64,000 bases of DNA from an uncultured Gammaproteobacteria bacterium (lineage in GTDB: Bacteria > Patescibacteriota > Patescibacteriia > Magasanikbacterales > UBA922): the NCBI GenBank assembly GCA_964394405.1, contig CAYMVY010000003.1, forward strand, positions 29,224-93,223. The letters run 5' to 3'. A model generated the notes under the pieces. It was not told the DNA's origin, made no database searches, and worked only from the letters and a program-made list of their open reading frames with translations. This document shows positions 4,122-48,005 of the stretch, piece after piece. The first letter of the stretch is position 1, and each line of letters starts with the position of its first letter. Position numbers and translations under genes: made by a program.

Positions 4122-4169
4122 ATGGAGCTTATACTAACAGAGTACAGGCAGTATGGCAATCTATCTGTA

Positions 4170-4198: not shown

Positions 4199-4224
4199 TT
4201 TCGCTACTAACACTTGAAATTAAT

Positions 4225-4297
4225 GGCGTCATCGTCTAGTGGTTAGGACACCAGGTTTTCATCCTGGGAACCGGGGTCCGATTCCCCGTGGCGCTAC
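4225..4297 (+). tRNA. tRNA-Glu (anticodon UUC)
   Basis: Cloverleaf folded by hand: acceptor GGCGUCA/UGGCGCU (two G-U pairs), D-arm GUCU..GGAC, anticodon stem CCAGG/CCUGG with loop UUUUCAU, T-arm CGGGG-UCCGAUU-CCCCG. No encoded CCA. Confidence 0.75.
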
Positions 4298-4303
4298 AAC
4301 TAC

Positions 4304-4334
4304 AAACCCAACTCACTTGAGTTGGGTTTTGTTT
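4304..4334 (+). terminator. Rho-independent terminator after tRNA-Glu
   Basis: Hairpin aaacccaactc-actt-gagttgggttt followed by a T-run. Confidence 0.55.
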
Positions 4335-4342
4335 GTATGCCT

Positions 4343-4379
4343 GTAAAATTGAAAGACCCCGCATCCGAAGATGCGGGGC
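4343..4379 (-). terminator. GC-rich hairpin terminator for the minus-strand island gene
   Basis: ccccgcatc-cgaa-gatgcgggg. On the minus strand it is followed by tctttcaatttt. Confidence 0.5.
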
Positions 4380-4409
4380 TTGTCTCCTTTGCAAGAGACT
4401 GTCGGACGA

Positions 4410-5177
4410 TCAGTGGTCGAGAGCCATCCGCTGGATGGCGCTCTCGATCCGCTGACGCTCGTCCGTGTGTGTCGGGAAGAGACTGCGCCAGTGAAGGACG
4501 ATCTTGTCCATCGCCTCCTGCTCGCGCGCCTCCTTGCTCGGTTGGTGGTAGTTGGCACCCACGATCAGCGGCACTCGCAGGTCGAGCATGGTGTAGCTGT
4601 ACTCACTCAGTGCGAGCATGCCGAGGAGGAAGTCGATGTCCTCCATGCCGCCGATCGCGTCACACCTGGCGTCGAACCCACCCATGAGCGGACCGAACGC
4701 CTCGATCCGGACCAGCATCCCAGTGTTACGCGGGTGCCGGTACGATCGTCCCAGGGAGACGATGTTCCCATCCTGTCGCCCCTCGAACGAGGTGCCGACC
4801 ACGCCGACCTTGGGGTCATTGATCGCGGCGTCGAGCATGGCCTCGAGGTGCTGTCTCGTGAACTGCGCCTCGACGCTGATGTTCATGACGAAGCGGAAAC
4901 GATTCCGCTCCCGTACGTTCGCCATGAACACGGCTTTGAAACCGATGTTCAGGGCGTTCGCCCACGAGTAGCCCTCGTGCATCTCGATGAGTTGCACGTG
5001 GCCGGCTTCGATGAACCCTCCGAGGAAGCCTCGGGTAGCGCCTCTGTCCTTGGTGGCGTCCGTAACGACGATGATCTTACCGATCCCCGCGTTACACAGG
5101 CTTGAGACCTGTTTTTGGACGAATTTGTTGTTGTAGGACCGCAGAATCGCGGCCGTCTGGTCCAGTCTGTCACGCAT
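4410..5177 (-). CDS. GT-A fold (family-2-like) glycosyltransferase, encoded in a strongly GC-rich island
   Basis: GT2-like motif order IIVVTDATKD .. GYSWANALNIG .. GGFDARCDAIGGMEDIDFLLG (compare GGFDE..EDxD). The region is visibly GC-rich, with long ORFs on both strands. The antisense ORF 4371..5105 looks like low-complexity junk. Confidence 0.5.
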   Translation of the reverse strand: MRDRLDQTAAILRSYNNKFVQKQVSSLCNAGIGKIIVVTDATKDRGATRGFLGGFIEAGHVQLIEMHEGYSWANALNIGFKAVFMANVRERNRFRFVMNISVEAQFTRQHLEAMLDAAINDPKVGVVGTSFEGRQDGNIVSLGRSYRHPRNTGMLVRIEAFGPLMGGFDARCDAIGGMEDIDFLLGMLALSEYSYTMLDLRVPLIVGANYHQPSKEAREQEAMDKIVLHWRSLFPTHTDERQRIESAIQRMALDH

Positions 5178-5347
5178 GATGTTTAGCGTGTTCCTTTGCC
5201 CCTCTCAAGGGCTTTTGGAAGTAAGATTCCGCGTCCTGTGGTACCCATTTGAGGTATGTTGGGACGATCCACCACACTATGATGGACGTCGAATAATATC
5301 ATATTTTAGCCATTTTGTCAAGTATACTCTTCGATATACGCTGTCTA

Positions 5348-5376
5348 TTGACATATTTCTCAGGCTTTGATATTAT
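5348..5376 (+). promoter_or_regulatory. Sigma70-like promoter TTGACA-17-TATTAT for rplJL
   Basis: ttgacatatttctcaggctttgatattat read directly. Confidence 0.5.
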
Positions 5377-5382
5377 CTCTTC

Positions 5383-5535
5383 ACCATAGACAGTAGCTTC
5401 CCGACAAAGTCGTGGATTAAATACGCTACCGAGGTAAACCAGTTCATCGTCAAGATGGACATCCCGACTAAGTCGGGATAAAGGTCGATATACCGTGTAC
5501 GTCTGTGGTTCAAAAAACCACATTTTTTATTTGTT
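5383..5535 (+). promoter_or_regulatory. Ribosomal protein L10 leader (autoregulatory leader with attenuator hairpin abutting the start codon)
   Basis: ~150-nt structured 5' UTR with hairpins aucccgac-uaa-gucgggau and ugugguu-caaaa-aaccaca followed by UUUUUUAUUUGUU immediately before the rplJ ATG. Position and architecture match the Firmicutes-type L10 leader. Confidence 0.45.
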
Positions 5536-6057
5536 ATGCCAAAAACTAGAGCGCAAAAAGAAGAAGCAATGCAGATTTTGGTCAATACCTTGAAACAGTC
5601 CAAGTCAGTCGTATTTGCGAACTTTCAAGGACTCAAGGTTTCTGAATCAGAAGAACTTCGACGATTGTGCCGAAAAGAAGGTGTTGAGTATGTTGCTGCC
5701 AAGAAAACTCTGGTAGCAAAAGCTCTCAAAGACGCTGGAATTGAAGCAAATCCAAAAAGTTTTGAAGGCGCAGTATCAGTGGTGTTTGGAATTCAGGATG
5801 AAGTTGCTCCTGCACAGATTCTTGCAAAATTCGCGAAAACGCATGAAGCAGTAAAACTTTTCGGCGGAATTCTCGAAGGTGCATTTATCGATGGCAAGAA
5901 AGTAACCGAACTCTCAAAACTTCCAAGCAAACAACAGCTTCTTGGTCAATTGGTGGGAACACTCAACGCTCCGGTATCCGGATTCGTGAATGTACTCGCT
6001 GGAAATCTCCGAGGACTGGTAACCGTACTTGGTGCGATCAAAGATGCAAAAGTTTAA
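5536..6057 (+). CDS. rplJ: 50S ribosomal protein L10
   Basis: MPKTRAQKEEAMQILVNTLKQSKSVVFANFQGLKV.. is typical of L10. 173 aa. Confidence 0.95.
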   Translation: MPKTRAQKEEAMQILVNTLKQSKSVVFANFQGLKVSESEELRRLCRKEGVEYVAAKKTLVAKALKDAGIEANPKSFEGAVSVVFGIQDEVAPAQILAKFAKTHEAVKLFGGILEGAFIDGKKVTELSKLPSKQQLLGQLVGTLNAPVSGFVNVLAGNLRGLVTVLGAIKDAKV

Positions 6058-13495: not shown

Positions 13496-14989
13496 ATGCA
13501 TATTCAGCCGTCGCATCTCATAAAAAAAAGAAGGAAGTGGCCGTACATAGTACTCGGGATCGTATTAATTTTTGTGTTATTTGTGGGGGGTGCATATTAT
13601 GCATTGCGTCATATTGGTATTGAAGGAATATTGTCTTCGCGTTTTTTACAAAATCAGATTACTGAACGGGTAGGGGAAATTGAGGGTGATATCTTTTCGC
13701 TTTTGCCAGCAGCATTGGGTTTTCAGGAACCACAGACTTATTTAGTATTATTTTTGAATAATACTGAGCTACGTCCGGGGGGTGGTTTTATCGGTGTGTA
13801 TGCAACTGTGCGACTTGACCGAGGGAATGTTGAAGTTCTTGCCGTAGAGGGTACCGAGCTCTTGGATAATCGATCTTCCAAAGATGCTATCCCTACCCCT
13901 CCAACACCGTTGTCTACCTATTTGAAGGTTGATGGATGGTATTTTCGTGATAGTAATTGGTCACCTGATTTTGGCGAGAGCGCAAAACGTTCGCTTGAGC
14001 TCTATCGCAGAGAAGCGGGTATTGCAGCCGATGATATTGATGCGGTGATTGGTATTACTCCGACTGTACTAGAAAGGCTTATGGAACGTACCGGCCCGCT
14101 TGTGGTAGATGGGATAACTTTTACCCCAGAAAATGTAGTTGAAGAATTGGAGCATGAGGTTGAGTATAATTTTTATCATCGAGGAATCGCGCGGGCTGAT
14201 CGTAAAGATATCATTGAATCTTTTATGCATATTATTCTTGATGAACTCAAAAGTGATATTTTTTTGCATCCAACCCAGTATAAAACTCTTGCTGAAACAC
14301 TGGTAAAAGAAAAACATATTATTGCATATGCCCTTGATTCTCAGGTTCAAGATACATTACGCGCGCATTTTGCAGATGGTGCAGTTCGTGAAACCATGGG
14401 TGATTATTTGATGTGGGTTGATGCAAATTTGGGTGCACTTAAAACTGATCATGCGATTGATCGGACTATATCTTATCAGATTCGACCTCGTGTTGATGGG
14501 GTAGGAAAAAAGTATTATGAGGCTACGGTTACTACAGAATATGCACATACACATAATTTTGATTGGAGGACATCTCGTTATTTGACGTACGCTCGTCTCT
14601 ACGTTCCTCGAGGAAGTGTCTTTGTTTCTGGTGTTTCACAAGTTGGTGATGTTCGAAAAGACATTGGTGCAATTGATCGTGGTAATGAGCTCGGAAAAGA
14701 ATGGTATGGAACTTTTATTTCTGTTGAACCACTTACTACTAAAAAAGTTTCATTAGTGTATATGCTCCCTGATTCTGTTACCGCACAGATTGATGCAGGG
14801 CTATATACTCTATTGGTTCAAAAACAACTTGGTTTGGTGGGTGCACGATTGACGCTTGACCTTGATTTTGATACAACTATTCAATCAGCTTCACCTTCGG
14901 AATTAGAGAGTGACTGGGGAAATGATACCTACACGATTAAAATGCCGTTTGAGAGTGATCACACATTTGAAGTAACTATAGGTAAGTAA
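13496..14989 (+). CDS. DUF4012-family membrane-anchored protein (cell-surface polymer associated)
   Basis: N-terminal TM followed by the YLVLFLNNTELRPGGGFIGVYATV block characteristic of DUF4012. Confidence 0.55.
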   Translation: MHIQPSHLIKKRRKWPYIVLGIVLIFVLFVGGAYYALRHIGIEGILSSRFLQNQITERVGEIEGDIFSLLPAALGFQEPQTYLVLFLNNTELRPGGGFIGVYATVRLDRGNVEVLAVEGTELLDNRSSKDAIPTPPTPLSTYLKVDGWYFRDSNWSPDFGESAKRSLELYRREAGIAADDIDAVIGITPTVLERLMERTGPLVVDGITFTPENVVEELEHEVEYNFYHRGIARADRKDIIESFMHIILDELKSDIFLHPTQYKTLAETLVKEKHIIAYALDSQVQDTLRAHFADGAVRETMGDYLMWVDANLGALKTDHAIDRTISYQIRPRVDGVGKKYYEATVTTEYAHTHNFDWRTSRYLTYARLYVPRGSVFVSGVSQVGDVRKDIGAIDRGNELGKEWYGTFISVEPLTTKKVSLVYMLPDSVTAQIDAGLYTLLVQKQLGLVGARLTLDLDFDTTIQSASPSELESDWGNDTYTIKMPFESDHTFEVTIGK

Positions 14990-18215: not shown

Positions 18216-19304
18216 ATGAGACGTTCGCTTTCAATTTTTGTAATCCTATTTTCAGTGCTTGTGTTAACCGGACAAGCTTGTGTTACTTTTGGCGGGAACA
18301 AAAAAAATACTGCACTTGGGCCATCGGGCGTGTGGGTTACTACCAAGAATGGTGAGTCCTGGACGCAGATTGTCTCCGTTCCTGGTGCTAAAGGGGTAGA
18401 ACAGCTCTCTGGTGCGGAGGTGTACAAATTGATTGATGATCCGCAGGATCCTCATGCACTCTACTGGGCATCCCGAGAGAATGGATTACTCTATAGTTAT
18501 GACGATGGTAGAACATGGGCACGAGCTGCAAGCCCACTTGATACTGGATTTGTCTACAGTGTTGCCATACATCCAAAGGAAAAATGCACGATATACGCGA
18601 CAAACGGTAGACAGATATTCAGATCCTTTGATTGTGCTCGATCGTGGAATGAAACGTATCGCGAAAATCGTACCAAATATGTCGTTACCTCGGTTGCGAT
18701 TAACCCATTTAATCCTTACCAGGTATATGCGGCGACTAGTGCTGGAGATGTGTATGTGAGTGCAGACGGGGGAAGCTCATGGCAGGTAAATATTCGCATC
18801 AATCGTGCGGATATTCGTGAGGTGGTGTTTGATCAACATGCTGAGGGAATTATATATCTTGCAACTCGTGAGAGCGGATTGTACCGATCTAAAGATGGGG
18901 GAGTTTCATGGGAGAATCTCAAATCTAAGTTTGCTGAGTATGCAGGATCTTTACAGTACCGTAGATTTGTGGTATATCCCTCAAAAGCAGAGACTATTTT
19001 CTGGATTTCAAAGTATGGAATCCTTACGTCGAGAAATTCTGGTGAAGACTGGGAACCAATTGCACTCGTCACCCCGCCAGGGAGTGTTGATATCTATGGC
19101 TTTGCGCTCAATCCTTCGAACGACAAAGAAATGTACTACACCGGAAGTATTGATGACAAATCCACATTCTATCGGAGTGTTGATGGGGGGACTACATGGG
19201 AAACACGTAAGCTTCCTACTAGACAGACTCCTACGGCGCTTCGGGTGCATCCAATAGAAAGTGGTTGGGTGTATCTGGGATTTACTACAATTGTAAAAAA
19301 ATAA
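18216..19304 (+). CDS. Secreted BNR/Asp-box repeat beta-propeller protein
   Basis: Signal peptide MRRSLSIFVILFSVLVLTGQAC. At least six SxDxGxTW-type boxes (SYDDGRTW, SFDCARSW, SADGGSSW, SKDGGVSW, SRNSGEDW, SVDGGTTW). Confidence 0.65.
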   Translation: MRRSLSIFVILFSVLVLTGQACVTFGGNKKNTALGPSGVWVTTKNGESWTQIVSVPGAKGVEQLSGAEVYKLIDDPQDPHALYWASRENGLLYSYDDGRTWARAASPLDTGFVYSVAIHPKEKCTIYATNGRQIFRSFDCARSWNETYRENRTKYVVTSVAINPFNPYQVYAATSAGDVYVSADGGSSWQVNIRINRADIREVVFDQHAEGIIYLATRESGLYRSKDGGVSWENLKSKFAEYAGSLQYRRFVVYPSKAETIFWISKYGILTSRNSGEDWEPIALVTPPGSVDIYGFALNPSNDKEMYYTGSIDDKSTFYRSVDGGTTWETRKLPTRQTPTALRVHPIESGWVYLGFTTIVKK

Positions 19305-19979: not shown

Positions 19980-20816
19980 ATGAGTGTAGAGGGGTTTAGT
20001 CCATCTCCAGTTGAGGTTAATCCTGAAAAGAGGGAGGATCACCAATTTGATGATTTGACGATTTTTACTACGACTTTTTATGGGAGTGATCCTGTTTCTC
20101 AAACTCGGCAGAAATTAGCTGAACAGTTTTTATCCAACGCTAATAATCTTGGGGTACGAACTGTTGTTGTGGATGGAGGATCAAATCCTGAATTTTTGGA
20201 ATCATTGAAACAGTTTAAAAACGTACACGTTATTGTCGAGAGTAAATTGTCAATGGGGGAGAGTCGTCGGCGTGCGCTTCATGAGGCGCGTCAGATATAC
20301 AAAACTCCATTTTATTTGTGGGCAGAGCCAGAAAAGTCTGGTCTTATTACTCCTGAATCACTACAAGTCATGATCAGTGGGCTACGAGGAGAAACGACTG
20401 ATATTATTGTCCCTGCACGTAAAAATTTTGAATCATTGCCGAAGTTTCAAAAATTCATGGAGAAGCGAGCGAATCAGCGGGTGCGGGATAAACTTATGCC
20501 TGACACAGAAGTACTTGATTTGTGGTTTGGTCCTAAAATGTTTAACAATGAAGGTGCTGAATATTTTGAAAATTATAAGGGTACCCTCGATAAATGGGAT
20601 TCAATTATTAAACCAGTGCTCGAGGCACATCAGGCGGGTAAACGGGTTTCCACCGTAGAAGTTGACTATGAATACGACCCAACACAAAAAAATTCTGAAG
20701 AAGGTGATCGGGAGATGAAAAGGAAAAGATTTGAGCAATATATTCAGATTTTAGCTGAATTGGGTGATTCTTTTTGGAAAGAACAGCTTGATCAGAGAGA
20801 ACGTCGTAAAAAATAA
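19980..20816 (+). CDS. Hypothetical protein, possibly a GT-A-like nucleotide-sugar transferase
   Basis: Weak TVVVDGGSNPEFLESL (DxD-like) segment only. Basic C-terminal tail. Confidence 0.35.
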   Translation: MSVEGFSPSPVEVNPEKREDHQFDDLTIFTTTFYGSDPVSQTRQKLAEQFLSNANNLGVRTVVVDGGSNPEFLESLKQFKNVHVIVESKLSMGESRRRALHEARQIYKTPFYLWAEPEKSGLITPESLQVMISGLRGETTDIIVPARKNFESLPKFQKFMEKRANQRVRDKLMPDTEVLDLWFGPKMFNNEGAEYFENYKGTLDKWDSIIKPVLEAHQAGKRVSTVEVDYEYDPTQKNSEEGDREMKRKRFEQYIQILAELGDSFWKEQLDQRERRKK

Positions 20817-21077
20817 TAAGAGTGTTTTTTGATCTAATAAAAAGTCACGTGCCCTACGTGGTTTTTTGTTTTTTGATTATCCTACTTTTTGCTATAAATA
20901 CTAATTATCTTCCTGGATGTAATTGCTGGTTTAAGGGTTTTTCCCACTTTTTTATGTGGTTTTTGTCTATTGTGGATATTTCTTCTATTTTTAGCTGTTT
21001 TTATATATGAAGAACATTCAAAAAATGATATACTAGTTGCGTATCTTGGCCATCTTTTTTAGGACCAAATTTTTCGT

Positions 21078-22442
21078 ATGTCATTGATCAAAATTACCAA
21101 TTTATCAGTAATTTATTTTCTTGGTAAGAGCAACGAGGTCAATGCCTTGACTGACGTTAGTCTGGAAATTAACGCTGGAGAGCTAATAATTTTTTTTGGA
21201 GCATCGGGCTGTGGTAAGTCTACGTTGCTCTATACCATTGCAGGACTTGAGTCTCCTACTCGAGGCGAGGTGATTGTTGATGGTATTGATTTGGCACATA
21301 TGAAAACTCATGAGCTTGAGTCCTATCGTCAGAAGACAATTGGAATGGTATTCCAGGCATTCCATCTTATTCCGTCTCTTTCAGTCATGAAGAATGTCAT
21401 GTTACCCAAAATTGCGGTAGGTGCATCATCGGCTGATAGGCGCGATGAGGCGATACGATTGATGAAATATTTTGGTGTCTATGAGCAACGTAATAAATTG
21501 CCTACTGAGTTGTCTGGTGGACAGCAACAGCGTGTTGCTATCTCTCGTTCATTGATCAATGATCCAGATATTATTTTTGCTGATGAACCGGTCGGTAATC
21601 TTGATTCAAAATCAGCTCAAGATGTGTTGGGATTGATTCAAGAGCTTAATGTGAAGGATAAGAAAACTGTTATCCTGGTTACTCACGATCCATCGCACCT
21701 TGATATTGCTGATCGAGTATTTTTTATGAAAGATGGTCGCATTACTGATACGAAGGTTAATACGACTACTCGAAAGATTATTCCAGGAACTGCAAAGGCT
21801 TCAGAAACCCAAAAGACTAACCTTGAATTGGTATCTGAGACACTTACCAAGTCTGGAGATTCTGGTATTAGTGGAATGCTCCTCGAATATAAAGCAAAAG
21901 AAATTGTATCTGAAGCATTGACTGGCTTTACTGTTGAAGAAACTTCTCATATTGAGAATTATGTGAAGCAACTCTTGCGTAGTTCACTCAGTGATTACAC
22001 GGGTTTGCAACAATATCTGGACGCTGATCAGAGCAGTGGCGGACTTGATTTGGATAAGCGATCGGCGCATCGTCTCGTAGAGGTTATCAAGCGCACGGTT
22101 GAAGATATGAAAATTTTGAGCACCACTACTCCTACTACGTACAAGAAGCATGTGGGCTATATAGAACAGTTGCGATGCCATCTACTCGACATGTTTGATG
22201 TTTCTATATCAAGTACTGATTCAATTGATGCGATTGAATCAGTGATTGTTGATCGGATAGAGGGAATTACTGATCGTGTTGGAGTTCAGGTAAAGCTTGA
22301 TATGCCCCTCATTGAAGGTGGTGCGGGACTGGATCGTCGGACTGCAAAAAAAATGGCAAAACATTTGGAATTAATTATGCTTGGGCGCTATCAACCTGGA
22401 TTTATGAAACCGGGAACTACTATTGATCGATCGGCTACATAA
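21078..22442 (+). CDS. MacB/LolD-type ABC transporter ATP-binding protein with a ~230-aa C-terminal extension of unknown function
   Basis: Walker [11 protein letters not shown]-loop, signature [13 protein letters not shown], Walker B IIFADEP, H-loop VTHD. Residues ~225-454 have no recognisable motif. Confidence 0.85.
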
Positions 22443-22443
22443 T

Positions 22444-23697
22444 ATGGAACAAAAACCACATACCCAAAAATTGGATTTTAAAAGCATGGTTTTGAAAGAT
22501 TTATTTTCTCTCTCTACTCGTACTTTTAAGACTCGTCTTTTGCGAACTTCTCTAACTATTTTGGGTATGAGTGTGGGTATTGGCGCGGTATTATTTTTGG
22601 TATCACTCGGATACGGTTTGCAAGAGACAGTGCTCAATCGTATTACTACTGCTGATGCGCTATTAAGTCTTGATGTTTCAGCAGGACAATCAGAACTTTT
22701 TAAACTTGATGCTGCAAGTATTGAAAAAATTGCTAGTCTGCCACATGTGGCAGAGGTGAGTCCGGTACGCGCTATCTCTTCTCAGATCGCCCTGAATGAC
22801 GTAACTGGTATTGTGACACTTTACTCAGTCAGGCCATCATATTTTGGATTGAGTGGGGTTGTTCTTTCGCAGGGTAGCTTTTTTACTTCGAATTCAGGTG
22901 ATCAGGCAGCGCGTGAACTCGTGGTTTCTTCTGCTATGACTACGCTTTTTAATATTACTCCAGAGGCGATTATTGGTAAGGAAGTTATGATGAGTGTGTT
23001 TGTTCCTACCAAGACTGAAGAGGGTGTTGAAGATGTGATGACCGTGGATTTTCCCACGCCATTTAAGGTGGTCGGCGTGGTACAGGATGATCGAGAAAGT
23101 TTTATGTACGCTCCAGCTGAGACACTAGTAGAGATACCGGTCGATACGTATATTGGGGTAAAAGTAAAAGTCACACAAGCTGAGTTTATGACATCTCTTC
23201 GTGATCAGATAATTGATATGGGTTTTTTCGTCTCAGTACTTCAGGATACTATTGATCAGGTAAAAAAGATTTTTTCTGTTATTCAAATCGTGCTTGGTTT
23301 ATTTGGACTTATTGCGTTAATCGTGTCTGCGATTGGAATGTTTAACACTATGACCGTCCTTCTTCTTGAACGTACTAATGAGATTGGGATTATGCGCTCA
23401 ATTGGTGTCACTCGCGCTGATGTTGGAAAATTATTTATTTTTGAATCCATGATTATGGGCTTCTTGGGTGGTCTGGGAGGAGTAATTCTCGGATATCTTG
23501 GGGGGACTGTATTCAATCTAGGTATCAATATTTTGGCAAATCAGTTTGGTGGTCAGTCGATTAGTTTGTTTTCTCGTCCTGTGTGGTTTATTGCATTGAT
23601 CATCATATTTTCTACGGTTATTGGTTTTTGTACGGGAATATTTCCTGCACGTCGCGCTGCACGCATCAAACCGCTCGACGCATTGCGGTATAAATAA
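22444..23697 (+). CDS. FtsX/MacB-type ABC transporter permease (4 TM with large extracytoplasmic loop)
   Basis: TM1 near N-terminus, ~230-aa loop, three C-terminal TMs, C-terminal ..RAARIKPLDALRYK as in MacB/FtsX. The ATG immediately follows the upstream TAA. Confidence 0.8.
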   Translation: MEQKPHTQKLDFKSMVLKDLFSLSTRTFKTRLLRTSLTILGMSVGIGAVLFLVSLGYGLQETVLNRITTADALLSLDVSAGQSELFKLDAASIEKIASLPHVAEVSPVRAISSQIALNDVTGIVTLYSVRPSYFGLSGVVLSQGSFFTSNSGDQAARELVVSSAMTTLFNITPEAIIGKEVMMSVFVPTKTEEGVEDVMTVDFPTPFKVVGVVQDDRESFMYAPAETLVEIPVDTYIGVKVKVTQAEFMTSLRDQIIDMGFFVSVLQDTIDQVKKIFSVIQIVLGLFGLIALIVSAIGMFNTMTVLLLERTNEIGIMRSIGVTRADVGKLFIFESMIMGFLGGLGGVILGYLGGTVFNLGINILANQFGGQSISLFSRPVWFIALIIIFSTVIGFCTGIFPARRAARIKPLDALRYK

Positions 23698-23720
23698 TTT
23701 GTCTACGCTGTTTCAATCGT

Positions 23721-26700
23721 ATGCCTGGTAAAAGACGAACTGTACAAGCAACACGCAATCCATCTCCTTCTCGAGGTGGTCGTCTTCGTGCCTGGCATAA
23801 GTATGTTGCGTGGCAGGAATTACTCAATTCATATCAGCTTTCTAAGAAGACGCAAAAGAATTCTGACACTCATACTGATCGTTTTTATCTAGAAAAACAA
23901 ATTGTTTGGCATTATTTCAAAAATTTCTTTTTATTTCCTGTATGGTTTTTCAAATTATTAACCCCGTCATATTTTAAGGGTCCGGTAAACGTATGGACAA
24001 ATCTTCATACGATTTTACGAAGTCATGAGTTTCGTCCACTCCGGATGGCAGTTGTGTCTCAGGCTCTTTTTCTATTTATTATTATTAAATTGGGAATTTT
24101 TGTATTCTATTATCAATCAACCCCTGCCTACACCGCAACCTACGGATGGATCCAGACTAACTGGATAGGGGGTGTTTCTACGACTGCTGCAGCAACACAC
24201 ACCAGTGATCGAACAGGTTGGACACAGTATACGAGCTCAACTCTGGTGAGTGTCTATGCTTCTCCTGGTAATGTGGTTATTGCAACATCGAGTTACACGA
24301 CGACTGATGATGCAACACTTACTACTGATGGGCTAGCGAGTGGGGGAGGATTTGGAAATGGTGCCACCTCGACTGTAGAGGTTAGTGGTGGGGATGTGAC
24401 TCTTAGTGTTGCATCAGCTGGAGGAGAAGTGCTTGATTGGGATTCAGCCCCCCTCACTCTTCCCGCTACTATTTCGGGCACTGATGATGGGAATGGGGTC
24501 ATGGTGACCGATGGTGATGATGCTTTTTATATTCTTCGAGGAGGTGGAACTACTGGTTTTTATAAATTTGTACCTTCCACTGCGACCACGAGCACACTTA
24601 CTTCAGTTCCGAGTGCAATTCCACCTAATGGAGGAGGTGGTTCGTTAGTACTTTCTGGTAATTATATCTACGTATATTCTGGCGGTAATAGTGGTCCAAA
24701 ATTTTATGCGTACTCAATTGCAGATGATTCATGGACCACTCTCACGAATCCACCCAGCGCTCCCTATGGGGATGGTATTGGTAGTAGTATGGCTGCAGAT
24801 GCTAGTGGTAATATTTATTTGGCAGCTGGAGGTGCTACTACTAATTTTTATAAATACACTGTGTCGACTGCTCCAAGTGGTTCGTGGAGCAGTGCATATA
24901 CTTTTGGGAGTAGTGTGCGAAGAGGTTCTCGTGCAATTTATGATAGCGTGAATAATGATATTTTGGTGCTTTCTGGTAATAATGGTCACAGTGTATTTAA
25001 ATTTGACATAGATTCTTCGACAGTCACCTCGTATGCTGGTGCTAACAATGATCCTGGCTTTACGACTGGTGCGACGATGGCTGTTGATACTACGAATAAT
25101 AGAGTCTATGCACTCAGTGGGCAGAGTTATGGGTACATGGAAATTCTCAATCTTTCGAATGGTACATGGAATTCTCGTCAATCTTCATCTACTCCTGTAG
25201 GGTCAGATGCAGGTGCCTATATGATTAAGAAAGAGGGTGAGAAGCGAATTTATACCTCATTTGGGGGAACTAGTTTTTACTACTTTAGTACTGATGGTGC
25301 TGGTTCGTGGCAGATGACCTCTAATACTAGCCCTGTCCCTGCTTCGATGGGGCAGGGTGCAACCCTGATTCGACATGGTAATGACGAGATCTATGCCTTG
25401 CTTGGTGGTGGAAGCTCGGCAATTTATCGTTTTGCGATTAATTCAGGCACGCAATATAACACGTCTGGAAATTTGATTTCAGCAACTATTGATCTCAAAT
25501 TTGCGTCTTCAACCTATATCTCTTGGTCAGCCACTACGCCTGCAAACACTGGTTCAAATGCAGTGAAATTTCAGGTTGCTGCGAATACTGATAACTCGAC
25601 GTGGAATTATGTAGGTCCTGATGGTACAGCGAGCACGTATTTTACCACTTCAAATACGGCATTACCTGATTCGCTGAATGGAAAGCGCTATTATAGGTAC
25701 AAAGCGTACCTCACAACCTCTAATTCTTCTTATACGCCTACATTGCATAGTGTTACTTTCACGTATGATAGTTATCGTACTTCTGGTGGAATAGCTTCTT
25801 CACCATTTAATACTCTTGATGGTACCAATGTTCCTGCATCTATTGCGTGGACACAAACTGTCCCAACGGGTACGAGTATTAAATTTCAAGTTCGTACTAG
25901 TGCTGATAATAATACGTGGACTTCGTGGATGGGTCCTGATGGGACTGAGGGTACCTATTTTACTGACAATACTGGGGCGCAGGATATGCCTGCGGCACTG
26001 AGCGATGGGACAAATGATAATTGGATTCAGTATCAGGCATATTTTGTGAGTGATGGTACGGCGACACCAGTACTCGCTGACGCTACCTTCACCTATGTAG
26101 TGAATGCTCCTCCTGAAATTTCTATCACAAGTTCTACTCTTTCGGTTGCTTCTGATGGGGTCTTGACTGTAGATTATACTGTTCGAGATATTGACACAGA
26201 CACTGGAGCTACGACCGGATATGTTGCAGTATCACTTCAGTATTGCACTGCAAATTGTTCGAGTTCTGGATCAGAAACCTGGGCAACTGCTGCTGCAGGA
26301 AGTTTGACTGGTAATTTTGGTTCGAGTGTTACGGTAAACGCCCTCTCACCAACCGAATATACGAGTCATTCTCTTACCTGGACGCCAACTAGTTCTTATA
26401 ATAATCAGTATAATGGAAGTACTTTTAAGATCCGTCTTGTTGCTGATGATTCTGAAGCTGCAAATAATACGGGGAATGATGAATCAAACGTTTTTGTTCT
26501 TGATACTACTGACCCTGTGGTTTCGTTAGTAATTGATGGAAGAACGTCTACTACTACATTGACCTTTAGTGTCACTGAAGATACTCAGCTAGGAATGCAG
26601 ATGAAGCTATCAAATAATAGTAGTCTTGCTTCTGATGGATTGAATGCTGATTCGGGAACTTGGATTCCCTATGCCTCCACCTCGACATGGAATTTGGGAA

Positions 26701-29700
26701 GTGGGGGAACTACGGTGTATTACCAAATCAAGGATAGGTACGGTAATGTCTCTGCAGGTAATGCTATTTCTTCGGGTCAGACTCCTCAAATTCCAGGAAA
26801 TTTATTTTTCAAAGATATTTCCAATGCAGAGACGAGTGAATGGCGAGAATTTATTGCTTGGCAAATTATTGACGAGCCGACTCCTGGATTTTCGAAATAT
26901 ACTATTTACCGCTCAACTGATGGTAGTACCTATGAGGAACTTGCAACTCAGGTATCACGTGTCATTAATTATTATCTTGATACTGATATTGATACTGGTA
27001 CTACGTATTACTATAAAGTCACTTCACATGATACTAGTGGAAATGTTTCGAGTTACTCGACGGTGGTGTCTGATGATCCCAATGGTACGGGAGGTACTGA
27101 TGTGGCGTCTCCTAGTATTACTAATGTTGCAACCAGTACGATTACACCTGATTCTGTGACTATTACCTGGGATACAGATGAGGTTTCTGATTCGTATGTG
27201 GATTATATTACGGTAGCAGGTGGTGATTTTAGTGGAGCTAATACGGTCGGTATTACTACCATGCGAGATACTGAAGATGGGCTCGGAGAGCACAGTGTAG
27301 TACTTACTGACCTGACCCCTGAAACTACATATTATTTCCGTGTACGGTCAATAGACCCGGATGGAAATCAAGGTACAGGTACTCAGGAGCCGAATGGGTA
27401 CTCGTTTACTACGTTGTCTGGACCCACTATTTCAAATGTGATAACCTCGGAGATTCTTAATACTGAGGCAACAATTACTTGGACTACCAATCAAGAGAGT
27501 GATTCATATGTTGTTTTTTCGACTTCTTCGAGTTTCACTGCATCTACTACGGTCGGCTCACCTACCAGTGTGACATCACATTCGGTCACCTTACCATCAC
27601 TCACTCAAAATACAACTTATTTTTATTATGTGGTATCTGGAATTTCGGTTGATAAAAATACTGTTGAGGGTCAACATGAGTATTATAGTTTTACCACTAC
27701 TGCAGACTTGACTGCTCCAACTATTACTTTTGACGTAGATGATGACGTCACTGTTTCTGACACCTCAATCATCGTCACTTTTGTGACCAATGAGCCTGCG
27801 ACTTCGAGTCTTCAGTATGGTACGAGCGGTGCTTATGGATCTTCCCAGATAAATAATAATTTGAATACCGATCATCGATACTCGCTTACAGACCTACTCC
27901 CGGGCACGCTCTATTATTTCAGTCTACAGGTCTCAGATGAAGATGAAAATGTATCAAGTGCTACCCAGTTTAATGCCACCACTACGAATAGTGCTGATGT
28001 GACTGCGCCGACTATATCATCAGTTACGACTACTGTTGTGACCGATGACCAGGCTCTTATTGAGTGGTCGACTGATGAAGGTGCAACAGGAAGAGTTTGG
28101 TATGGAACTACTTCAGGAATATATGGATCGTCCAGTAATCTATCTTCGTCATACAATCGGAGTCATGCAATAACATTATCAAGTTTGACTACTTCGACTG
28201 CATATTATTATATCGTTGCTTCGGTTGATTCCAGTGGAAATTCTGCAACTTCAAGTGAATATGGATTTACTACTCTTGAGACGCTTACTCCTGAAAGTGA
28301 AGTAATTTTGCGTGAAGAAGAAGCGCGGGCTGAAGGAGAGGATGAGGGAAGGGCAGCTGCTTCTTCGGGTGGTGGCGGTGGTGGCGGAGGCTCTTCCTCT
28401 GACAAGACGGCCCCGATTATTTCGGGAGCCACTGTTACTGATATTACGAGTCAGTCTGCCACCTTTACTTGGAATACTGATGAGGCAGGGGATAGTGTGG
28501 TTGAATTTGGAGAAACCAATGCTTATGGAAGAGGTGGATTGATTTTTGAGAATACAAAAAATCATAAAATAGTTCTTACTGACTTAGATCCTCTCACTAA
28601 GTATTTTTATCGATTGAGTTCTGCAGATGCAGCGGGTAATCGTAGTACTTTCTTTGAAAGTTCGTTTAGCACTCTTTCGCTTTTAGAAGACGCAAATACT
28701 ATTGCAAGTACTACTGCATCTGATGATCTGGAAACAGAGGAGGTACAGGAATCATTCCTTGCTTCTCTTGAAAAAGTGACTGATTTTATACGTACCATGG
28801 CGACTCGAGTAAGTGTTGGAGTTCTTGAGTCATCACTATTGAAACAGTCTGATCTAGTACTCGAACTTTCTTCGCTTCTCCCTCTTCCTGCTATTGGTGG
28901 ACAGCCAGTGGTTGAAACAGGTTCTACCTATGCTACGGTTTCTTGGACTACTGATAAGGAATCTAATTCATTGGTTTCTTTTGCTTCTGATGCGGACTAC
29001 CTTCTTTCCAAGCAGTACACACAGACTGTTGGTGATTCTGAATTGATGACCACACAGCATTCAGTTGAAATTAGGGGATTACAGCCATCGACTCTGTATC
29101 ACTATCGTGTGATTTCGCGAACTCAGACTGGTGCTGAGACGAGATCTCAGGATTTTGTGTTCCAGACCAAGGCTGAGAGTACAGAAATCGAGACGCATAA
29201 GATTGATATTATATCTTCTGAAGAGGCTGTATTTTCATGGAATACAACTATCCCGACTGAATCTATTGTATCGTATATTCCGTATCGCAATGGTGTCCTT
29301 GATATTGACGCAAAACAGTTTGTAAAAGATAAAAGTCTTACTACAAAACATTCGTTGCATGTCAAAAACCTCGAAGCAGGTGTACTCTATGATATTGAAA
29401 TTTCTGGTATTGATTCAGGCGGTAATACAGTCAGTAAGACAATCAAAGGTTTTTCAACTAATGATGAGGATCTTCCTCCAATTATTTCTCAGGTCACCAC
29501 TGATTCAGCGATTCTTCCTGGAGGAAATGATAAAATTCAGGTAATCATTTCTTGGATTACCAATGAATTTTCTACAACCAAAGTGTATTACCTTAAAGGA
29601 TTCTCGGGTGAGAATACTGAGTTCAAAGATAGTACCCCGCTTGATTCTAATTACACGAAAAAACATATTGCAGTTATTGCTAATTTTGAGCCTGGTTTTG

Positions 29701-29858
29701 TGTATCAGTTTCAAGTCGAGAGCACTGATTCTTCTGGTAATACCACTCGTTCAAAGACATACACTCTTTTGACCCCACGAAAAGAAGAATCAGTCTTCCA
29801 GATTATTACAGGTAATTTTGAAAGTATCTTCTCATGGGTAGGAAAACTGAGGAGTTAG
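23721..29858 (+). CDS. Giant (2045 aa) single-pass surface protein with an N-terminal cytoplasmic basic segment and TM helix. The extracellular part has Kelch/beta-propeller-like repeats and at least eight fibronectin-III-like modules.
   Basis: TM AVVSQALFLFIIIKLGIFVFYY. Repeated GG..FYKF/YRF blades. Fn3-like modules each start (T/S)ITW(D/T)T(D/N).. and end ..YY(F/Y)(R/Y)V.S.D..GN (for example VTITWDTDEVSDSYVDY..TTYYFRVRSIDPDGNQG). Gly8 linker at aa ~1545. Confidence 0.8.
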   Translation: MPGKRRTVQATRNPSPSRGGRLRAWHKYVAWQELLNSYQLSKKTQKNSDTHTDRFYLEKQIVWHYFKNFFLFPVWFFKLLTPSYFKGPVNVWTNLHTILRSHEFRPLRMAVVSQALFLFIIIKLGIFVFYYQSTPAYTATYGWIQTNWIGGVSTTAAATHTSDRTGWTQYTSSTLVSVYASPGNVVIATSSYTTTDDATLTTDGLASGGGFGNGATSTVEVSGGDVTLSVASAGGEVLDWDSAPLTLPATISGTDDGNGVMVTDGDDAFYILRGGGTTGFYKFVPSTATTSTLTSVPSAIPPNGGGGSLVLSGNYIYVYSGGNSGPKFYAYSIADDSWTTLTNPPSAPYGDGIGSSMAADASGNIYLAAGGATTNFYKYTVSTAPSGSWSSAYTFGSSVRRGSRAIYDSVNNDILVLSGNNGHSVFKFDIDSSTVTSYAGANNDPGFTTGATMAVDTTNNRVYALSGQSYGYMEILNLSNGTWNSRQSSSTPVGSDAGAYMIKKEGEKRIYTSFGGTSFYYFSTDGAGSWQMTSNTSPVPASMGQGATLIRHGNDEIYALLGGGSSAIYRFAINSGTQYNTSGNLISATIDLKFASSTYISWSATTPANTGSNAVKFQVAANTDNSTWNYVGPDGTASTYFTTSNTALPDSLNGKRYYRYKAYLTTSNSSYTPTLHSVTFTYDSYRTSGGIASSPFNTLDGTNVPASIAWTQTVPTGTSIKFQVRTSADNNTWTSWMGPDGTEGTYFTDNTGAQDMPAALSDGTNDNWIQYQAYFVSDGTATPVLADATFTYVVNAPPEISITSSTLSVASDGVLTVDYTVRDIDTDTGATTGYVAVSLQYCTANCSSSGSETWATAAAGSLTGNFGSSVTVNALSPTEYTSHSLTWTPTSSYNNQYNGSTFKIRLVADDSEAANNTGNDESNVFVLDTTDPVVSLVIDGRTSTTTLTFSVTEDTQLGMQMKLSNNSSLASDGLNADSGTWIPYASTSTWNLGSGGTTVYYQIKDRYGNVSAGNAISSGQTPQIPGNLFFKDISNAETSEWREFIAWQIIDEPTPGFSKYTIYRSTDGSTYEELATQVSRVINYYLDTDIDTGTTYYYKVTSHDTSGNVSSYSTVVSDDPNGTGGTDVASPSITNVATSTITPDSVTITWDTDEVSDSYVDYITVAGGDFSGANTVGITTMRDTEDGLGEHSVVLTDLTPETTYYFRVRSIDPDGNQGTGTQEPNGYSFTTLSGPTISNVITSEILNTEATITWTTNQESDSYVVFSTSSSFTASTTVGSPTSVTSHSVTLPSLTQNTTYFYYVVSGISVDKNTVEGQHEYYSFTTTADLTAPTITFDVDDDVTVSDTSIIVTFVTNEPATSSLQYGTSGAYGSSQINNNLNTDHRYSLTDLLPGTLYYFSLQVSDEDENVSSATQFNATTTNSADVTAPTISSVTTTVVTDDQALIEWSTDEGATGRVWYGTTSGIYGSSSNLSSSYNRSHAITLSSLTTSTAYYYIVASVDSSGNSATSSEYGFTTLETLTPESEVILREEEARAEGEDEGRAAASSGGGGGGGGSSSDKTAPIISGATVTDITSQSATFTWNTDEAGDSVVEFGETNAYGRGGLIFENTKNHKIVLTDLDPLTKYFYRLSSADAAGNRSTFFESSFSTLSLLEDANTIASTTASDDLETEEVQESFLASLEKVTDFIRTMATRVSVGVLESSLLKQSDLVLELSSLLPLPAIGGQPVVETGSTYATVSWTTDKESNSLVSFASDADYLLSKQYTQTVGDSELMTTQHSVEIRGLQPSTLYHYRVISRTQTGAETRSQDFVFQTKAESTEIETHKIDIISSEEAVFSWNTTIPTESIVSYIPYRNGVLDIDAKQFVKDKSLTTKHSLHVKNLEAGVLYDIEISGIDSGGNTVSKTIKGFSTNDEDLPPIISQVTTDSAILPGGNDKIQVIISWITNEFSTTKVYYLKGFSGENTEFKDSTPLDSNYTKKHIAVIANFEPGFVYQFQVESTDSSGNTTRSKTYTLLTPRKEESVFQIITGNFESIFSWVGKLRS

Positions 29859-29917: not shown

Positions 29918-29946
29918 TTGACAAAACTCTTATTTTCACCTATAGT
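29918..29946 (+). promoter_or_regulatory. Promoter TTGACA-17-TATAGT for the glyQS leader
   Basis: ttgacaaaactcttattttcacctatagt. Confidence 0.45.
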
Positions 29947-45994: not shown

Positions 45995-46025
45995 AAAAAA
46001 TCACCATATACTGGTGATTTTTTGT
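45995..46025 (+). terminator. Rho-independent terminator after tRNA-Trp
   Basis: aaaaaatcacca-tatac-tggtgattttttg. Confidence 0.6.
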
Positions 46026-46115
46026 TGCTCGCCGACGGGTGTCCTGCGAGCAGGATGCTATTTCGTCGGCGGTGGTCTAGCGCGTGTTCCCACGGCTTCT
46101 CCTTGTGTTGTTGTC

Positions 46116-46439
46116 TCAGAAGTCGATGACCTCGACGTACTCCGGGATCCCGTTCTTCCAGCGGGGATTGAATTCTGGCTGGTTGAAGGTCGAGCGGTAG
46201 AGCCTGCTCAGTTCCCCTGATCCGTCGAAGCGCATCTGGTCCGGTGTCACGACGACGAGGTTGTCCTTGTTGCCGAAGCCGATCTTCAATGCGGCAGTGT
46301 ACGCCTCGTCCATCGTCAGCGGCCAGTTGGCGCGGACGTACTCCTCCATCGTGGTTGCCTTGTAGCCTTCGCTACCCGCTACGATTTTCATCTTGACTTC
46401 TCCGCCCTTGCGGACGGTGATGAGGCCTTGGGTTGCCAT
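46116..46439 (-). CDS. Hypothetical 107-aa protein in GC-rich island 2, with a strong AGGAGG Shine-Dalgarno
   Basis: MATQGLITVRKGGEVKMKIVAGSEGYKATTMEEYVRANWPLTMDEAYTAALKIGFGNKDNLVVVTPDQMRFDGSGELSRLYRSTFNQPEFNPRWKNGIPEYVEVIDF has no family I can name. caggaggaaagcATG on the minus strand. Confidence 0.5.
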   Translation of the reverse strand: MATQGLITVRKGGEVKMKIVAGSEGYKATTMEEYVRANWPLTMDEAYTAALKIGFGNKDNLVVVTPDQMRFDGSGELSRLYRSTFNQPEFNPRWKNGIPEYVEVIDF

Positions 46440-46488
46440 GCTTTCCTCCTGTTGCATTTGGCCGGATACATATACTAAAATTTAAAGA

Positions 46489-46511
46489 GTTTGTCAATAG
46501 TATTGACAAAC
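46489..46511. promoter_or_regulatory. Perfect 11-bp-arm palindrome overlapping the -35 of the helicase promoter (candidate operator)
   Basis: gtttgtcaata-g-tattgacaaac. A promoter TTGACA(46503)-17-TATACT is embedded in it. Confidence 0.4.
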
Positions 46512-46634
46512 CACCCTCTTTCTGCTATACTCGCATTTCATTCATTGGACGGTCATTTGACCGCCCTTCGACTCGAATCTTCTTGTTCCATAGTTATAGT
46601 GGCCCAGTAGACATCGGGTCACTATATTTATTTT

Positions 46635-48005
46635 ATGGAACACACCACAAAGGTGGGCTTTGAAAGTCTGCCTATTGCTCCAAAACTCTTAGAGATTTTG
46701 GCGCAGCACAAGTATACTCATCCGACTCCAATCCAATTGAAGTCTATTCCTGTTGCCCTCGAGGGTAAGGATATGGTGGGTATTGCACAGACTGGAACAG
46801 GGAAGACGCTTGCGTTTGGAATCCCCATGATTCAGCGTCTTGCAAAATTAAAAGCGCAAGGACTTGTAGTCGTGCCTACACGTGAGCTGGCGCTTCAAGT
46901 GGAAGAAACACTTCGAAAGATAGGGCATTCATTGGGACTCAAAACAGCTGTGATTATTGGGGGAGCCTCGATGTACACCCAGATTAATGAGCTTCGTCGC
47001 AATCCACATATTATTGTTGCGACTCCAGGACGGTTGGTAGATCATCTCGAACAAAAGACGGTGACGCTTGATCGTATACAGGTGGTAGTTCTTGATGAAG
47101 CTGATCGTATGTTTGATATTGGATTTGCGCCACAAATCAAGCGAATTTTATCGCTCACCCCAAAAGATCGTCAGACGCTTCTTTTTTCTGCGACCATGCC
47201 TGCTGAAATTGCAAAAATGGCATCACAGCATATGAAGTTGCCACTTCGGATCGAAGTTGCACCTCAAGGAACGAGTTCTGCAAATGTGGAACAGGAAATT
47301 TTTATTATCAGCAAAGAACAAAAATTACAATTACTTCAGAAATTACTTGATGACAACAAAGGAACAGTACTCGTATTTTCTCGAACCAAATTTGGCGCAA
47401 AGCGAATTGCAGCTTCACTTCGTCACATGAATCATACGGCTGTTGAAATTCACTCGAATCGAACGCTTGCGCAGAGAAAAGCAGCGCTTGCTGGATTCAA
47501 ATCAGGACAGTATCGAATTCTCGTCGCAACTGACATCGCTGCACGTGGAATCGATGTGACGGGAATTTCTCTCGTTATCAATTACGACCTTCCAGATAAT
47601 TCTGAAGATTACGTGCATCGAATTGGACGTACTGGTCGCGCTGGACTTACCGGGAAAGCAGTGTCATTTGCAACTCACCAAGAGCGAGCACAGATCAAAC
47701 AGATTGAACGATTGATCAAAAAAACTTTGCCAATTATTGGTCTTCCGACACTTCCTCCGAGAATTGAAGTACCTCGTGATTCAGGTCGCGAAGAACGATT
47801 TGAGGGAGGCTCTCGACGTAATTTTCGAGGAAATGATTCTCGAGAGCAACGAAATTTTGGTAGCGGTGGACAGCGACGTAGCCGGACGCATCGATATGGA
47901 AATAATCGTCCACGTCCTGAAGGGCAGAGCGACAATCAAGCACAGAAACCATCATTTCAGCGAACATTTCGCAGACCATCTCGACCTTCGTCCAATCAGT
48001 CATAA
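46635..48005 (+). CDS. DEAD-box ATP-dependent RNA helicase with an RG/RS-rich C-terminal tail
   Basis: Q-motif, AQTGTGKT, PTRELA, DEAD, SAT, HRIGRTGRAG motifs. Tail ..GGSRRNFRGNDSREQRNFGSGGQRRSR.. Confidence 0.9.
   Translation: MEHTTKVGFESLPIAPKLLEILAQHKYTHPTPIQLKSIPVALEGKDMVGIAQTGTGKTLAFGIPMIQRLAKLKAQGLVVVPTRELALQVEETLRKIGHSLGLKTAVIIGGASMYTQINELRRNPHIIVATPGRLVDHLEQKTVTLDRIQVVVLDEADRMFDIGFAPQIKRILSLTPKDRQTLLFSATMPAEIAKMASQHMKLPLRIEVAPQGTSSANVEQEIFIISKEQKLQLLQKLLDDNKGTVLVFSRTKFGAKRIAASLRHMNHTAVEIHSNRTLAQRKAALAGFKSGQYRILVATDIAARGIDVTGISLVINYDLPDNSEDYVHRIGRTGRAGLTGKAVSFATHQERAQIKQIERLIKKTLPIIGLPTLPPRIEVPRDSGREERFEGGSRRNFRGNDSREQRNFGSGGQRRSRTHRYGNNRPRPEGQSDNQAQKPSFQRTFRRPSRPSSNQS

Follow-up and report, generated by a model that had tools for sequence, protein, structure and literature searches.

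The window analysed here, a stretch of 64,000 nucleotides (nt), carries on its forward strand three closely spaced genes that encode an ATP-binding cassette (ABC) ATPase with a long C-terminal tail, a MacB-type permease and a giant surface protein of 2045 amino acids (aa). A first, sequence-only reading had taken ATPase and permease for a MacB-type exporter and had given the coordinates of the three genes, with gaps of 1 and 23 nt between them; a check of the open reading frames (ORFs) bears out the coordinates and both gaps, and the MacB-type assignment holds as well. The tail of the ATPase consists of two copies of a four-helix unit, and the three genes are found side by side again in related genomes. 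It is tentatively proposed that they form a module of the cell envelope in which the ABC pair acts on the surface protein. The genes and the parts of their products are the following, with transmembrane segments abbreviated as TM, the nucleotide-binding domain as NBD, fibronectin type III as Fn3 and the N-terminal domain of purple acid phosphatases as PAP-N.

21078-22442, + strand: ATPase gene, 454 aa (ORF coordinates)
21078-21761, + strand: NBD of the ATPase, aa 1-228, MacB/LolD/FtsE-like, catalytic motifs all intact (profiles, alignment, AlphaFold2)
21762-21860, + strand: linker, aa 229-261, poorly conserved in length and sequence, predicted to be disordered at about 239-249 (alignment, AlphaFold2)
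21861-22124, + strand: first unit of the tail, aa 262-349, four-helix, with G322 invariant and A330 nearly invariant
22125-22418, + strand: second unit of the tail, aa 350-447, a copy of the first, with G415 invariant and R393, G417 and E431 nearly so
22444-23697, + strand: permease gene, 417 aa, with its ATG 1 nt past the ATPase stop codon; MacB-type, with TM1, an extracytoplasmic MacB_PCD domain (aa 35-256) and three FtsX-type TM helices
23721-29858, + strand: gene of the giant surface protein, 2045 aa, starting 23 nt past the permease gene
23721-24239, + strand: N-terminal anchor module, with a basic cytoplasmic tail (aa 1-105), a TM segment (106-134) and a post-TM motif (aa 139-173)
24141-25460, + strand: putative Kelch-type beta-propeller region, aa about 141-580 (Kelch_6 match)
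25461-26798, + strand: beta-rich region without family match, aa 581-1026
26799-29759, + strand: nine Fn3/PAP-N-like modules, aa 1027-2013 (profiles and iterated self-profile)
27867-29858, + strand: conserved FN3c core, aa about 1383-2045 (about 660 aa), shared with other loci that have an extension-bearing ABC ATPase
29760-29858, + strand: conserved amphipathic C-terminal peptide LTPRKEESVFQIITGNFESIFSWVGKLRS and stop codon (alignments, hydrophobic moment)

By its sequence, the ATPase belongs to the ABC ATPases (PF00005) and therein to the MacB/LolD/FtsE subgroup, with Walker A, Q-loop, signature, Walker B glutamate and H-switch all present. The ABC_tran profile matches aa 24-172 (E 3.4e-34), and the top NCBIfam matches, which cover aa 3-225 and all remain under their equivalog cut-offs, are LolD, MacB, DevA and FtsE, with LolD as the best-scoring model. 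The full set of canonical motifs that had been described for the first approximately 225 residues is confirmed by a 38-sequence alignment, in which Walker A (G41, S43, G44, G46, K47), Q93, the signature (S146-G-G-Q149), D169-E170 and H203 are invariant, and AlphaFold2 models aa 1-227 with a predicted local distance difference test (pLDDT) above 90. The permease has four hydrophobic spans, TM1 at 35-60 and three more within 272-403, and contains the domains MacB_PCD (aa 35-256, E 3e-22) and FtsX (aa 286-410, E 1.1e-19). In number of TM helices, position of MacB_PCD and FtsX-type bundle it thus agrees with a type VII ABC permease of the MacB type. A single permease gene follows the ATPase gene in every related locus in which that side is present, and the permease is therefore probably a homodimer.

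The similarity to MacB of the MacAB-TolC pump comprises the MacB/LolD-like NBD and, in the permease, TM1, the MacB periplasmic core domain and three FtsX-type TM helices, and the E. coli MacB model can be aligned to aa 3-248 of the ATPase and aa 17-414 of the permease. In contrast to MacB, however, NBD and permease are encoded by separate genes, a duplicated helical tail of about 200 aa is found where the fused MacB passes over to its linker, the place of a conserved partner is taken by an Fn3-repeat protein, and the scores with the NCBIfam equivalog models are far under the cut-offs. No gene for a MacA/HlyD adaptor or an outer-membrane channel was detected in the operon, in the flanks within the window or among the recurrent neighbours of 110 related loci. 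The lack of such an adaptor and of TolC is a difference to MacAB-TolC that is expected without an outer membrane, and without these two components the system is not part of a tripartite pump of that kind.

The helical tail of the ATPase

In the tail, aa ~250-447, a four-helix unit of ~75 aa occurs twice, and in the 38-sequence alignment each copy ends with LDxPxxxGG[AV]GLxxRTAxKxxxxLE. When the two units were compared profile against profile (hhalign), a probability of 99.4% and an E-value of 1.5e-21 were obtained, which identifies the tail as a tandem duplication of this unit. AlphaFold2 predicts the tail alone as two entirely helical four-helix units with a pLDDT of 91.2 and a predicted TM-score (pTM) of 0.83, and in the model of the whole ATPase, calculated with the family alignment, the pLDDT is 88 and the linker is disordered at ~239-249. 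A word-indexed search with the tail alone gave a single relative with 43% identity, and a HMMER search over 1.84 billion cluster representatives gave 189 tail clusters at E<=1e-3 and 80 at E<=1e-10, each being a cluster at 50% identity. All full-length members that were inspected (415-510 aa) consist of a MacB-type NBD followed by the tail, with additional low-complexity N- or C-terminal tails in a few of them; apparent exceptions are fragments of this architecture, and no fusion of the tail to anything other than a MacB-type NBD was found among the inspected members. As judged from sequence conservation and models, the tail is a real, conserved and confidently predicted domain that has previously not been described.

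The sequence-only reading had quoted a peptide from this extension, which is present in the sequence, and had regarded a match to a common known domain such as TOBE as evidence against its interpretation. Such a match was not obtained: Pfam and NCBIfam give nothing past aa ~248 of the ATPase, Pfam scans of 25 tail members at E<=1 yield no consistent family, profile searches against PDB sequences with the whole tail or a single unit give nothing significant, and the Foldseek comparison of the tail model, which was limited to the PDB, has no hit at E<=1e-3. A TOBE, MalK-type or NIL regulatory domain was rejected, as there is no profile match, the model is all-helical and Foldseek finds no match in the PDB. 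Two apparent similarities were also dismissed. A match to aspartate ammonia-lyase (8rj1, E 1.7e-4) that was obtained with a two-sequence profile did not recur with a 25-sequence profile and was therefore treated as an artefact of helical composition, and the resemblance to 'GGLGLNLQTAD' in an SNF2-type chain is short, not significant and a matter of chance. In a public gene index, no entry with exactly the sequence of the window ATPase was found, and in the searchable literature, the coverage of which is incomplete, no description of the tail or of the linkage between ABC and Fn3 genes was found.

Domains that follow the NBD are known from other ABC ATPases, namely the regulatory domain (RD) of MalK, the C2 domain of MetN, the TOBE domains of ModC and CysA, and the C-terminal domain of Wzt. 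They dimerise beneath the NBDs and gate the activity or recognise the substrate. The tail occupies the same position after the NBD, but in contrast to these beta-rich domains it is all-alpha and internally duplicated, and it has no sequence or Foldseek similarity to them. By analogy, it may serve as a cytoplasmic dimerisation or regulatory domain. With the tail, a new, confidently predicted helical domain joins the few accessory domains that are known as fusions to ABC ATPases.

Two deviating cases among the tail-bearing genes deserve mention. In one Magasanikbacteria lineage that is represented by several independent assemblies (loci L001-L006 and L009; e.g. L001 6889-7821), the ATPase gene begins at LSGGQ, the half of the NBD that contains Walker A is gone, and the ~380 nt in front of the gene contain no coding sequence in any frame. 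Both the tail and the permease have remained intact, the next gene encodes serine hydroxymethyltransferase, and there is no Fn3 protein at that place. The system in this lineage may be decaying or repurposed. The most distant tail-bearing ATPase (L036, 38% identity) is encoded on a contig of 62% G+C, CAYNEL010000014.1, which is labelled 'uncultured Bdellovibrionales'.

The surface protein and its association with the ABC pair

The giant protein begins with a basic region (18 K/R versus 5 D/E in aa 1-107) that is followed by a single TM segment at ~106-134, in agreement with the basic N-terminus and the one TM helix noticed before. Behind the TM segment, the anchor module contains the conserved motif TYGWxQxxWxGGxST...H...GW..Y. 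For the Kelch-like blades of the earlier description, the profiles give mixed results: when aa 141-580 were scanned alone, one Kelch_6 blade scored 34.8 bits, which is above the cut-off of 25.3, but the Kelch-repeat domain model reached only 36.8 with a cut-off of 50. Membership of the repeats in the Fn3/PAP-N families is clear from the profiles, with Pur_ac_phosph_N at 2.1e-43 (7 stretches) and fn3 at 4.9e-24, and where 'at least 8' Fn3-like modules had been counted, an iterated self-profile delimits nine, each with E<=1e-23. The array is not continuous, as an acidic/Gly-rich linker (aa 1514-1559) and a ~70-aa helical insert (aa 1647-1717) lie within it.

The most conserved segment of the protein is its C-terminal 125 aa, comprising the last Fn3 module(s) and the C-terminal peptide, with 46-73% identity in 80 loci. 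The consensus of this C-peptide across homologs is (L/I)(L/A)(T/A)P..(E/Q)(S/T)VFQxIxxNFExxFGW, and the helical hydrophobic moment of the 30 residues is 1.52, as compared with a mean of 0.66 in shuffled sequences, of which a fraction of 0.0065 reach 1.52. In that a short stretch is conserved at the C-terminus of variable surface proteins and is genetically linked to a dedicated membrane machine, the C-peptide resembles LPXTG and PEP-CTERM signals, the C-terminal domain of type IX secretion substrates and the signals of type I secretion systems (T1SS). Unlike in these sorting signals, it is an amphipathic helix without the pattern of TM segment or basic tail, and the linked machine is an ABC motor and not a sortase-type or exosortase-type enzyme. 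None of the NCBIfam sorting-signal models matches it.

Short homologs of 731-737 aa share with the giant the basic tail, the TM segment, Fn3 modules, the helical inserts and the C-peptide. They are devoid of the Kelch region, which is lineage-specific, and the whole region between anchor and core varies among homologs. The window protein and several other giants contain the anchor module and the Fn3 core in one chain; at L007/L008, L040/L041, L033 and L102, the anchor module has one or more genes of its own next to that of the Fn3 core. This corresponds to the arrangement of a modular surface protein in which the base is constant and the payload can be exchanged. At L007 (2969-6573) and L008 (12130-14777), which are the closest relatives of the window locus (ATPase 64% identical), the giant is split identically into two genes, the first encoding an N-anchor protein of 248-263 aa with TM segment, TYGW motif and Cys-rich end, and the second, overlapping one encoding a protein with an own signal-peptide-like segment, Fn3 repeats and a Gly-rich region. 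L033 (1789-4868) and L102 (3-5210) have two tandem N-anchor paralogs with different C-terminal domains as neighbours of the Fn3-core gene and of the ABC pair, which suggests that these anchor proteins are a small family with exchangeable heads.

It had been asked in the earlier reading whether ABC pair and giant gene are syntenic elsewhere, and this is the case in two samples. On the side of the ATPase, a tail profile from a six-sequence alignment was used with one genome per species, which gave 30 loci and is biased to closer relatives. Their taxon labels rest on record titles (Magasanikbacteria, Falkowbacteria, which NCBI places in the Parcubacteria group, Parcubacteria, Paceibacteria, and 'Patescibacteria group'); some records have generic labels as third-party annotations (TPA, e.g. 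'uncultured Gammaproteobacteria'), and these labels were distrusted. A homolog of the giant or its Fn3 core directly adjoins the ABC pair in 13 of these 30 loci, six times downstream as in the window and seven times upstream. On the side of the Fn3 core, the last 125 aa of the giant have at least 467 relatives in metagenome contigs, the best 80 loci of which were examined. The tail-bearing ATPase gene is directly downstream of the Fn3 gene in 32 of the 80 (gap -61 to +434 nt), and ATPase and permease genes are upstream of it in five more, so that 37/80 are linked overall. Another 36 loci end at contig edges, including 23 in which only the downstream flank is readable and has no ABC pair. Every ATPase beside an Fn3-core gene bears the tail, and the Fn3-core loci that are negative for the ABC pair do not have a permease homolog either. 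What the linked loci share of the giant is its C-terminal ~660 aa, and the linkage thus concerns this part of the protein but not the putative Kelch propeller and the middle region, which are lineage-specific.

The genes outside the trio of ATPase, permease and Fn3 protein vary from locus to locus, and the ATPases of the related loci are 38-64% identical to that of the window. In a neighbour-joining tree of the ATPases, loci with the Fn3 gene upstream occur throughout, those with the Fn3 gene downstream form two clades, one of which includes the window, and unlinked loci are scattered. Adjacency thus has outlasted an inversion of gene order, the turnover of the flanks and a divergence of the ATPases to 38-64% identity, which is good evidence for a functional coupling. 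A diverged Fn3 protein was considered for the upstream ORFs of L010/L016 (~1020 aa) and L014/L015/L023 (~650 aa), but these have neither Fn3 modules nor the C-peptide and look like housekeeping genes.

The window contains a second MacB-type system at 58780-62026, with a 241-aa ATPase without tail (NBD 39% identical) and two MacB_PCD+FtsX permeases in a LolCDE-like layout, followed by a YidC-like insertase gene (62069-62866) and without an Fn3-type neighbour. As this tail-less system has no Fn3 neighbour, the tail is specific to the Fn3-linked paralog.

Possible mode of action and alternatives

MacB, LolCDE and FtsEX, the type VII ABC systems, have no transmembrane path for a substrate; instead, the movement that is driven by ATP is passed on to an extracytoplasmic domain. 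Since this class lacks a transmembrane path and since the giant bears its own N-terminal signal-anchor, it is unlikely that the ABC pair is an exporter of the giant, as had been considered at first. What is tentatively proposed instead is an envelope module of three parts, specific to Patescibacteria, in which a type VII ABC motor acts on the surface protein from the outer face of the membrane, and this proposal is the favoured one, although its chance of being correct is somewhat less than even. The motor would be assembled from two permease and two ATPase subunits, and the Fn3-repeat surface protein would be inserted by Sec and anchored N-terminally. ATP binding and hydrolysis in the cytoplasm would move the extracytoplasmic domain of the permease, as in FtsEX-PcsB/EnvC or LolCDE, and this domain might hold, reposition or release the C-terminal module of the surface protein, while the variable N-terminal payload, which is the putative Kelch propeller in the window, would be the displayed part. 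The tail, placed beneath the NBD dimer, might keep the dimer together and/or gate the ATPase in response to a cytoplasmic ligand or partner.

FtsEX with its partners PcsB, EnvC, CwlO or RipC offers a precedent, being a type VII pair that transports nothing and drives an extracytoplasmic partner by mechanotransmission, and the surface protein of the window also has helical inserts between globular modules (aa 1514-1559 and 1647-1717). The differences are that the window permease has MacB_PCD and not the extracellular domain of FtsX, that its partner has no hydrolase domain, and that FtsE has no tail. With FtsE at 179.6 bits (cut-off 264.85) and the FtsX models at 30-35 (cut-offs 225-255), and with MacB_PCD as the extracytoplasmic domain, the pair does not belong to FtsEX itself.

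An exploratory mirror-tree analysis of 31 non-redundant triads offers a hint as to where the contact may take place. Distances of the C-peptide track those of the extracytoplasmic domain of the permease (partial Spearman 0.43, Mantel p 0.0005), but not those of the NBD, the tail (partial -0.22) or the TM domain. Several points weigh against the proposed module, however. When the clade of L017/L019/L025 is left out, the partial correlation is 0.18 (p 0.07), and upon further pruning the correlation of the C-peptide is no longer specific to the extracytoplasmic domain; the co-evolution signal comes mostly from one clade and is therefore kept as a hint and not as a result. The interaction of ABC pair and surface protein is deduced from architecture and gene neighbourhood. 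An N-terminal TM segment that is not cleaved would force the C-terminus of an extended protein of 2000 aa to fold back to the membrane, and the function of the tail is without a structural analogue in the model-based comparison (best Foldseek-PDB E 2.5). Moreover, the ABC pair has no adjacent Fn3-core gene in 17 of the 30 species representatives, and seven of the 80 metagenome loci, which are the closest relatives of the query and not a random sample, have no ABC pair although both flanks are readable. The pair may thus work alone or with an unlinked partner.

These unlinked loci, the 17 species representatives as well as the seven fully readable Fn3-core loci, also fit the view that there is no functional coupling at all, in which case the ABC pair would act by itself as a MacB-type pump for efflux or resistance, directed for instance at antimicrobials of the host, the tail would be a lineage-specific structural part, and the adjacency to Fn3 genes would be synteny inherited in small genomes with densely packed genes. 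MacB-type pumps commonly act on small molecules, which is in line with such a role. An adjacency that persists through order inversion and full turnover of the outer flanks at 38-64% ATPase identity speaks against this view, however, and the tail-less MacB paralog of the window is not linked to an Fn3 protein. A lack of coupling is thus considered unlikely.

Distinctly unlikely is a Lol-like extraction or release, by which the ABC pair would pull an anchor of the surface protein, be it the N-terminal TM segment or a C-peptide in the outer leaflet, from the membrane and in this way shed the protein or pass it on to the wall or to the host. There are similarities to LolCDE in the separate LolD-like ATPase, for which LolD is the best NCBIfam model, in the MacB_PCD domain of the permease, which is found in LolC/E as well, and in the proposed action on membrane-anchored proteins at the outer face of the membrane. 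The adjacent gene of the window encodes a membrane-anchored partner. The C-peptide is strongly amphipathic, and small residues before TYGW (for example PALAA|TYGW in L007) hint at a processing of the anchor. On the other hand, there is one permease gene and not a LolC/LolE pair, the substrate candidate has no lipobox or other lipoprotein signature, the conserved module includes no LolA/LolB-like gene, and the organism is monoderm-like. With LolD at 210 bits (cut-off 307.75) and lolCE at 67 (cut-off 362), the NCBIfam models are far under their cut-offs, and together with the single permease gene this excludes the system from LolCDE.

A further alternative concerns only the tail and is compatible with any of the views on the module. 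The end of each unit, when inspected by eye, consists of a helix, a Gly-x-Gly loop and a helix starting with R-T-A-K-K, which recalls helix-hairpin-helix (HhH) motifs and anion-binding helix N-termini, and the tail could hence be a module that binds nucleic acid or phosphate and links the transporter with DNA or a nucleotide second messenger. This is improbable: no HhH family came up in the Pfam scans of the 25 members, the PDB profile searches were empty, the loop is two residues longer than that of the canonical HhH hairpin, and the tail of the window protein is net acidic (24 K/R versus 28 D/E).

Finally, it is very improbable that the giant is exported in a T1SS-like manner, C-terminus first, with the C-peptide as an uncleaved signal that the ATPase tail reads in the cytoplasm and with the N-terminus left behind as an anchor that retains the protein: the layout resembles that of the classic T1SS of HlyA and LapA, in which a giant repeat protein with a conserved amphipathic C-terminal peptide is encoded next to an ABC transporter, and the tail is specific to the paralog beside the Fn3 protein, but the permease has the MacB/FtsX fold and not that of HlyB-type exporters, no polypeptide channel is known in this class, the basic tail and TM signal-anchor of the giant argue for insertion by Sec/YidC, the C-peptide distances do not track the tail, and no gene for a membrane fusion protein is found in the window flanks or among the recurrent neighbours of related loci. 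For the same reasons of permease type, missing fusion protein gene and N-terminal anchor, the system was not assigned to type I secretion.

Patescibacteria account for a large share of bacterial diversity, their cultivated members are attached to host cells, and the molecules of this contact are mostly not known. In the module described here, a known motor class, the MacB-type or type VII ABC systems, is by its sequences joined to a domain and a conserved partner that are both new, and a widespread, clonable unit is defined. One part of it is an ABC motor that bears the new cytoplasmic domain, the other a surface protein whose C-terminal tag is conserved and whose tips can be exchanged. The mounting or operation of large surface proteins by Patescibacteria could be explained by such a unit. 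If it is true that the motor acts on the tag, mechanotransmission as in FtsEX, LolCDE and MacB would extend to adhesin-like proteins. The idea can be taken further to a Patescibacteria-wide, hitherto unrecognised system of tail-bearing ABC pair and ESVFQxIxxNFExxFGW peptide that anchors or actuates surface proteins, in which the motor would grip the C-terminal tag of modular Fn3 stalks, the variable tips would contact the host, and the duplicated helical domain would be the cytoplasmic control input. The tag would then represent a new class of C-terminal sorting or anchoring signals with an ABC motor as cognate machine, but in this far-reaching form the idea is doubtful. Large Fn3-bearing membrane proteins of another patescibacterium have been regarded as candidate host-interaction factors (PMC13059738), and a role of the giant in host attachment is plausible as background.

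Surroundings in the window

Two patterns in the sequence probably delimit the three genes:

20836-20870, + strand: terminator-like hairpin of 16 pairs with T-run, after the preceding gene (pattern match only)
29918-29946, + strand: best sigma-70-like promoter of the region, TTGACA-17-TATAGT, 11/12 (consensus match only)

The hairpin is followed by an AT-rich intergenic region of ~200 nt ahead of the ATPase gene and likely marks the upstream boundary of the three-gene unit, and the promoter match, just 3' of the stop codon of the giant gene, is likely the start of the next unit with an aminoacyl-tRNA synthetase gene. As pattern matches, the two sites are compatible with a single three-gene operon.

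The surroundings on the same strand encode MreB, glycosyltransferases, the delta' subunit of DNA polymerase III, a BNR protein, ribosome recycling factor, a class II aminoacyl-tRNA synthetase and an M16 peptidase, and this mixture of housekeeping and envelope genes resembles the layout of reduced genomes. The ORF directly 5' of the module (19980-20816, 278 aa), which is separated from the ATPase gene by the hairpin, has no Pfam match and was not seen as a conserved neighbour at other loci. Further upstream, a DUF4012 protein (13496-14989) and a BNR/sortilin-type beta-propeller protein (18216-19304) are envelope proteins encoded among the glycosyltransferases and MreB, and neither is a conserved neighbour of the ABC/Fn3 module in the other genomes. 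The only Rfam matches of the window at gathering thresholds are tRNAs. The G+C content is ~0.40 in most of the window and higher in the 2-kb blocks 4001-6000 (0.50) and 46001-48000 (0.47), the former of which contains the overlapping opposite-strand ORFs 4371-5105 (+) and 4410-5177 (-).

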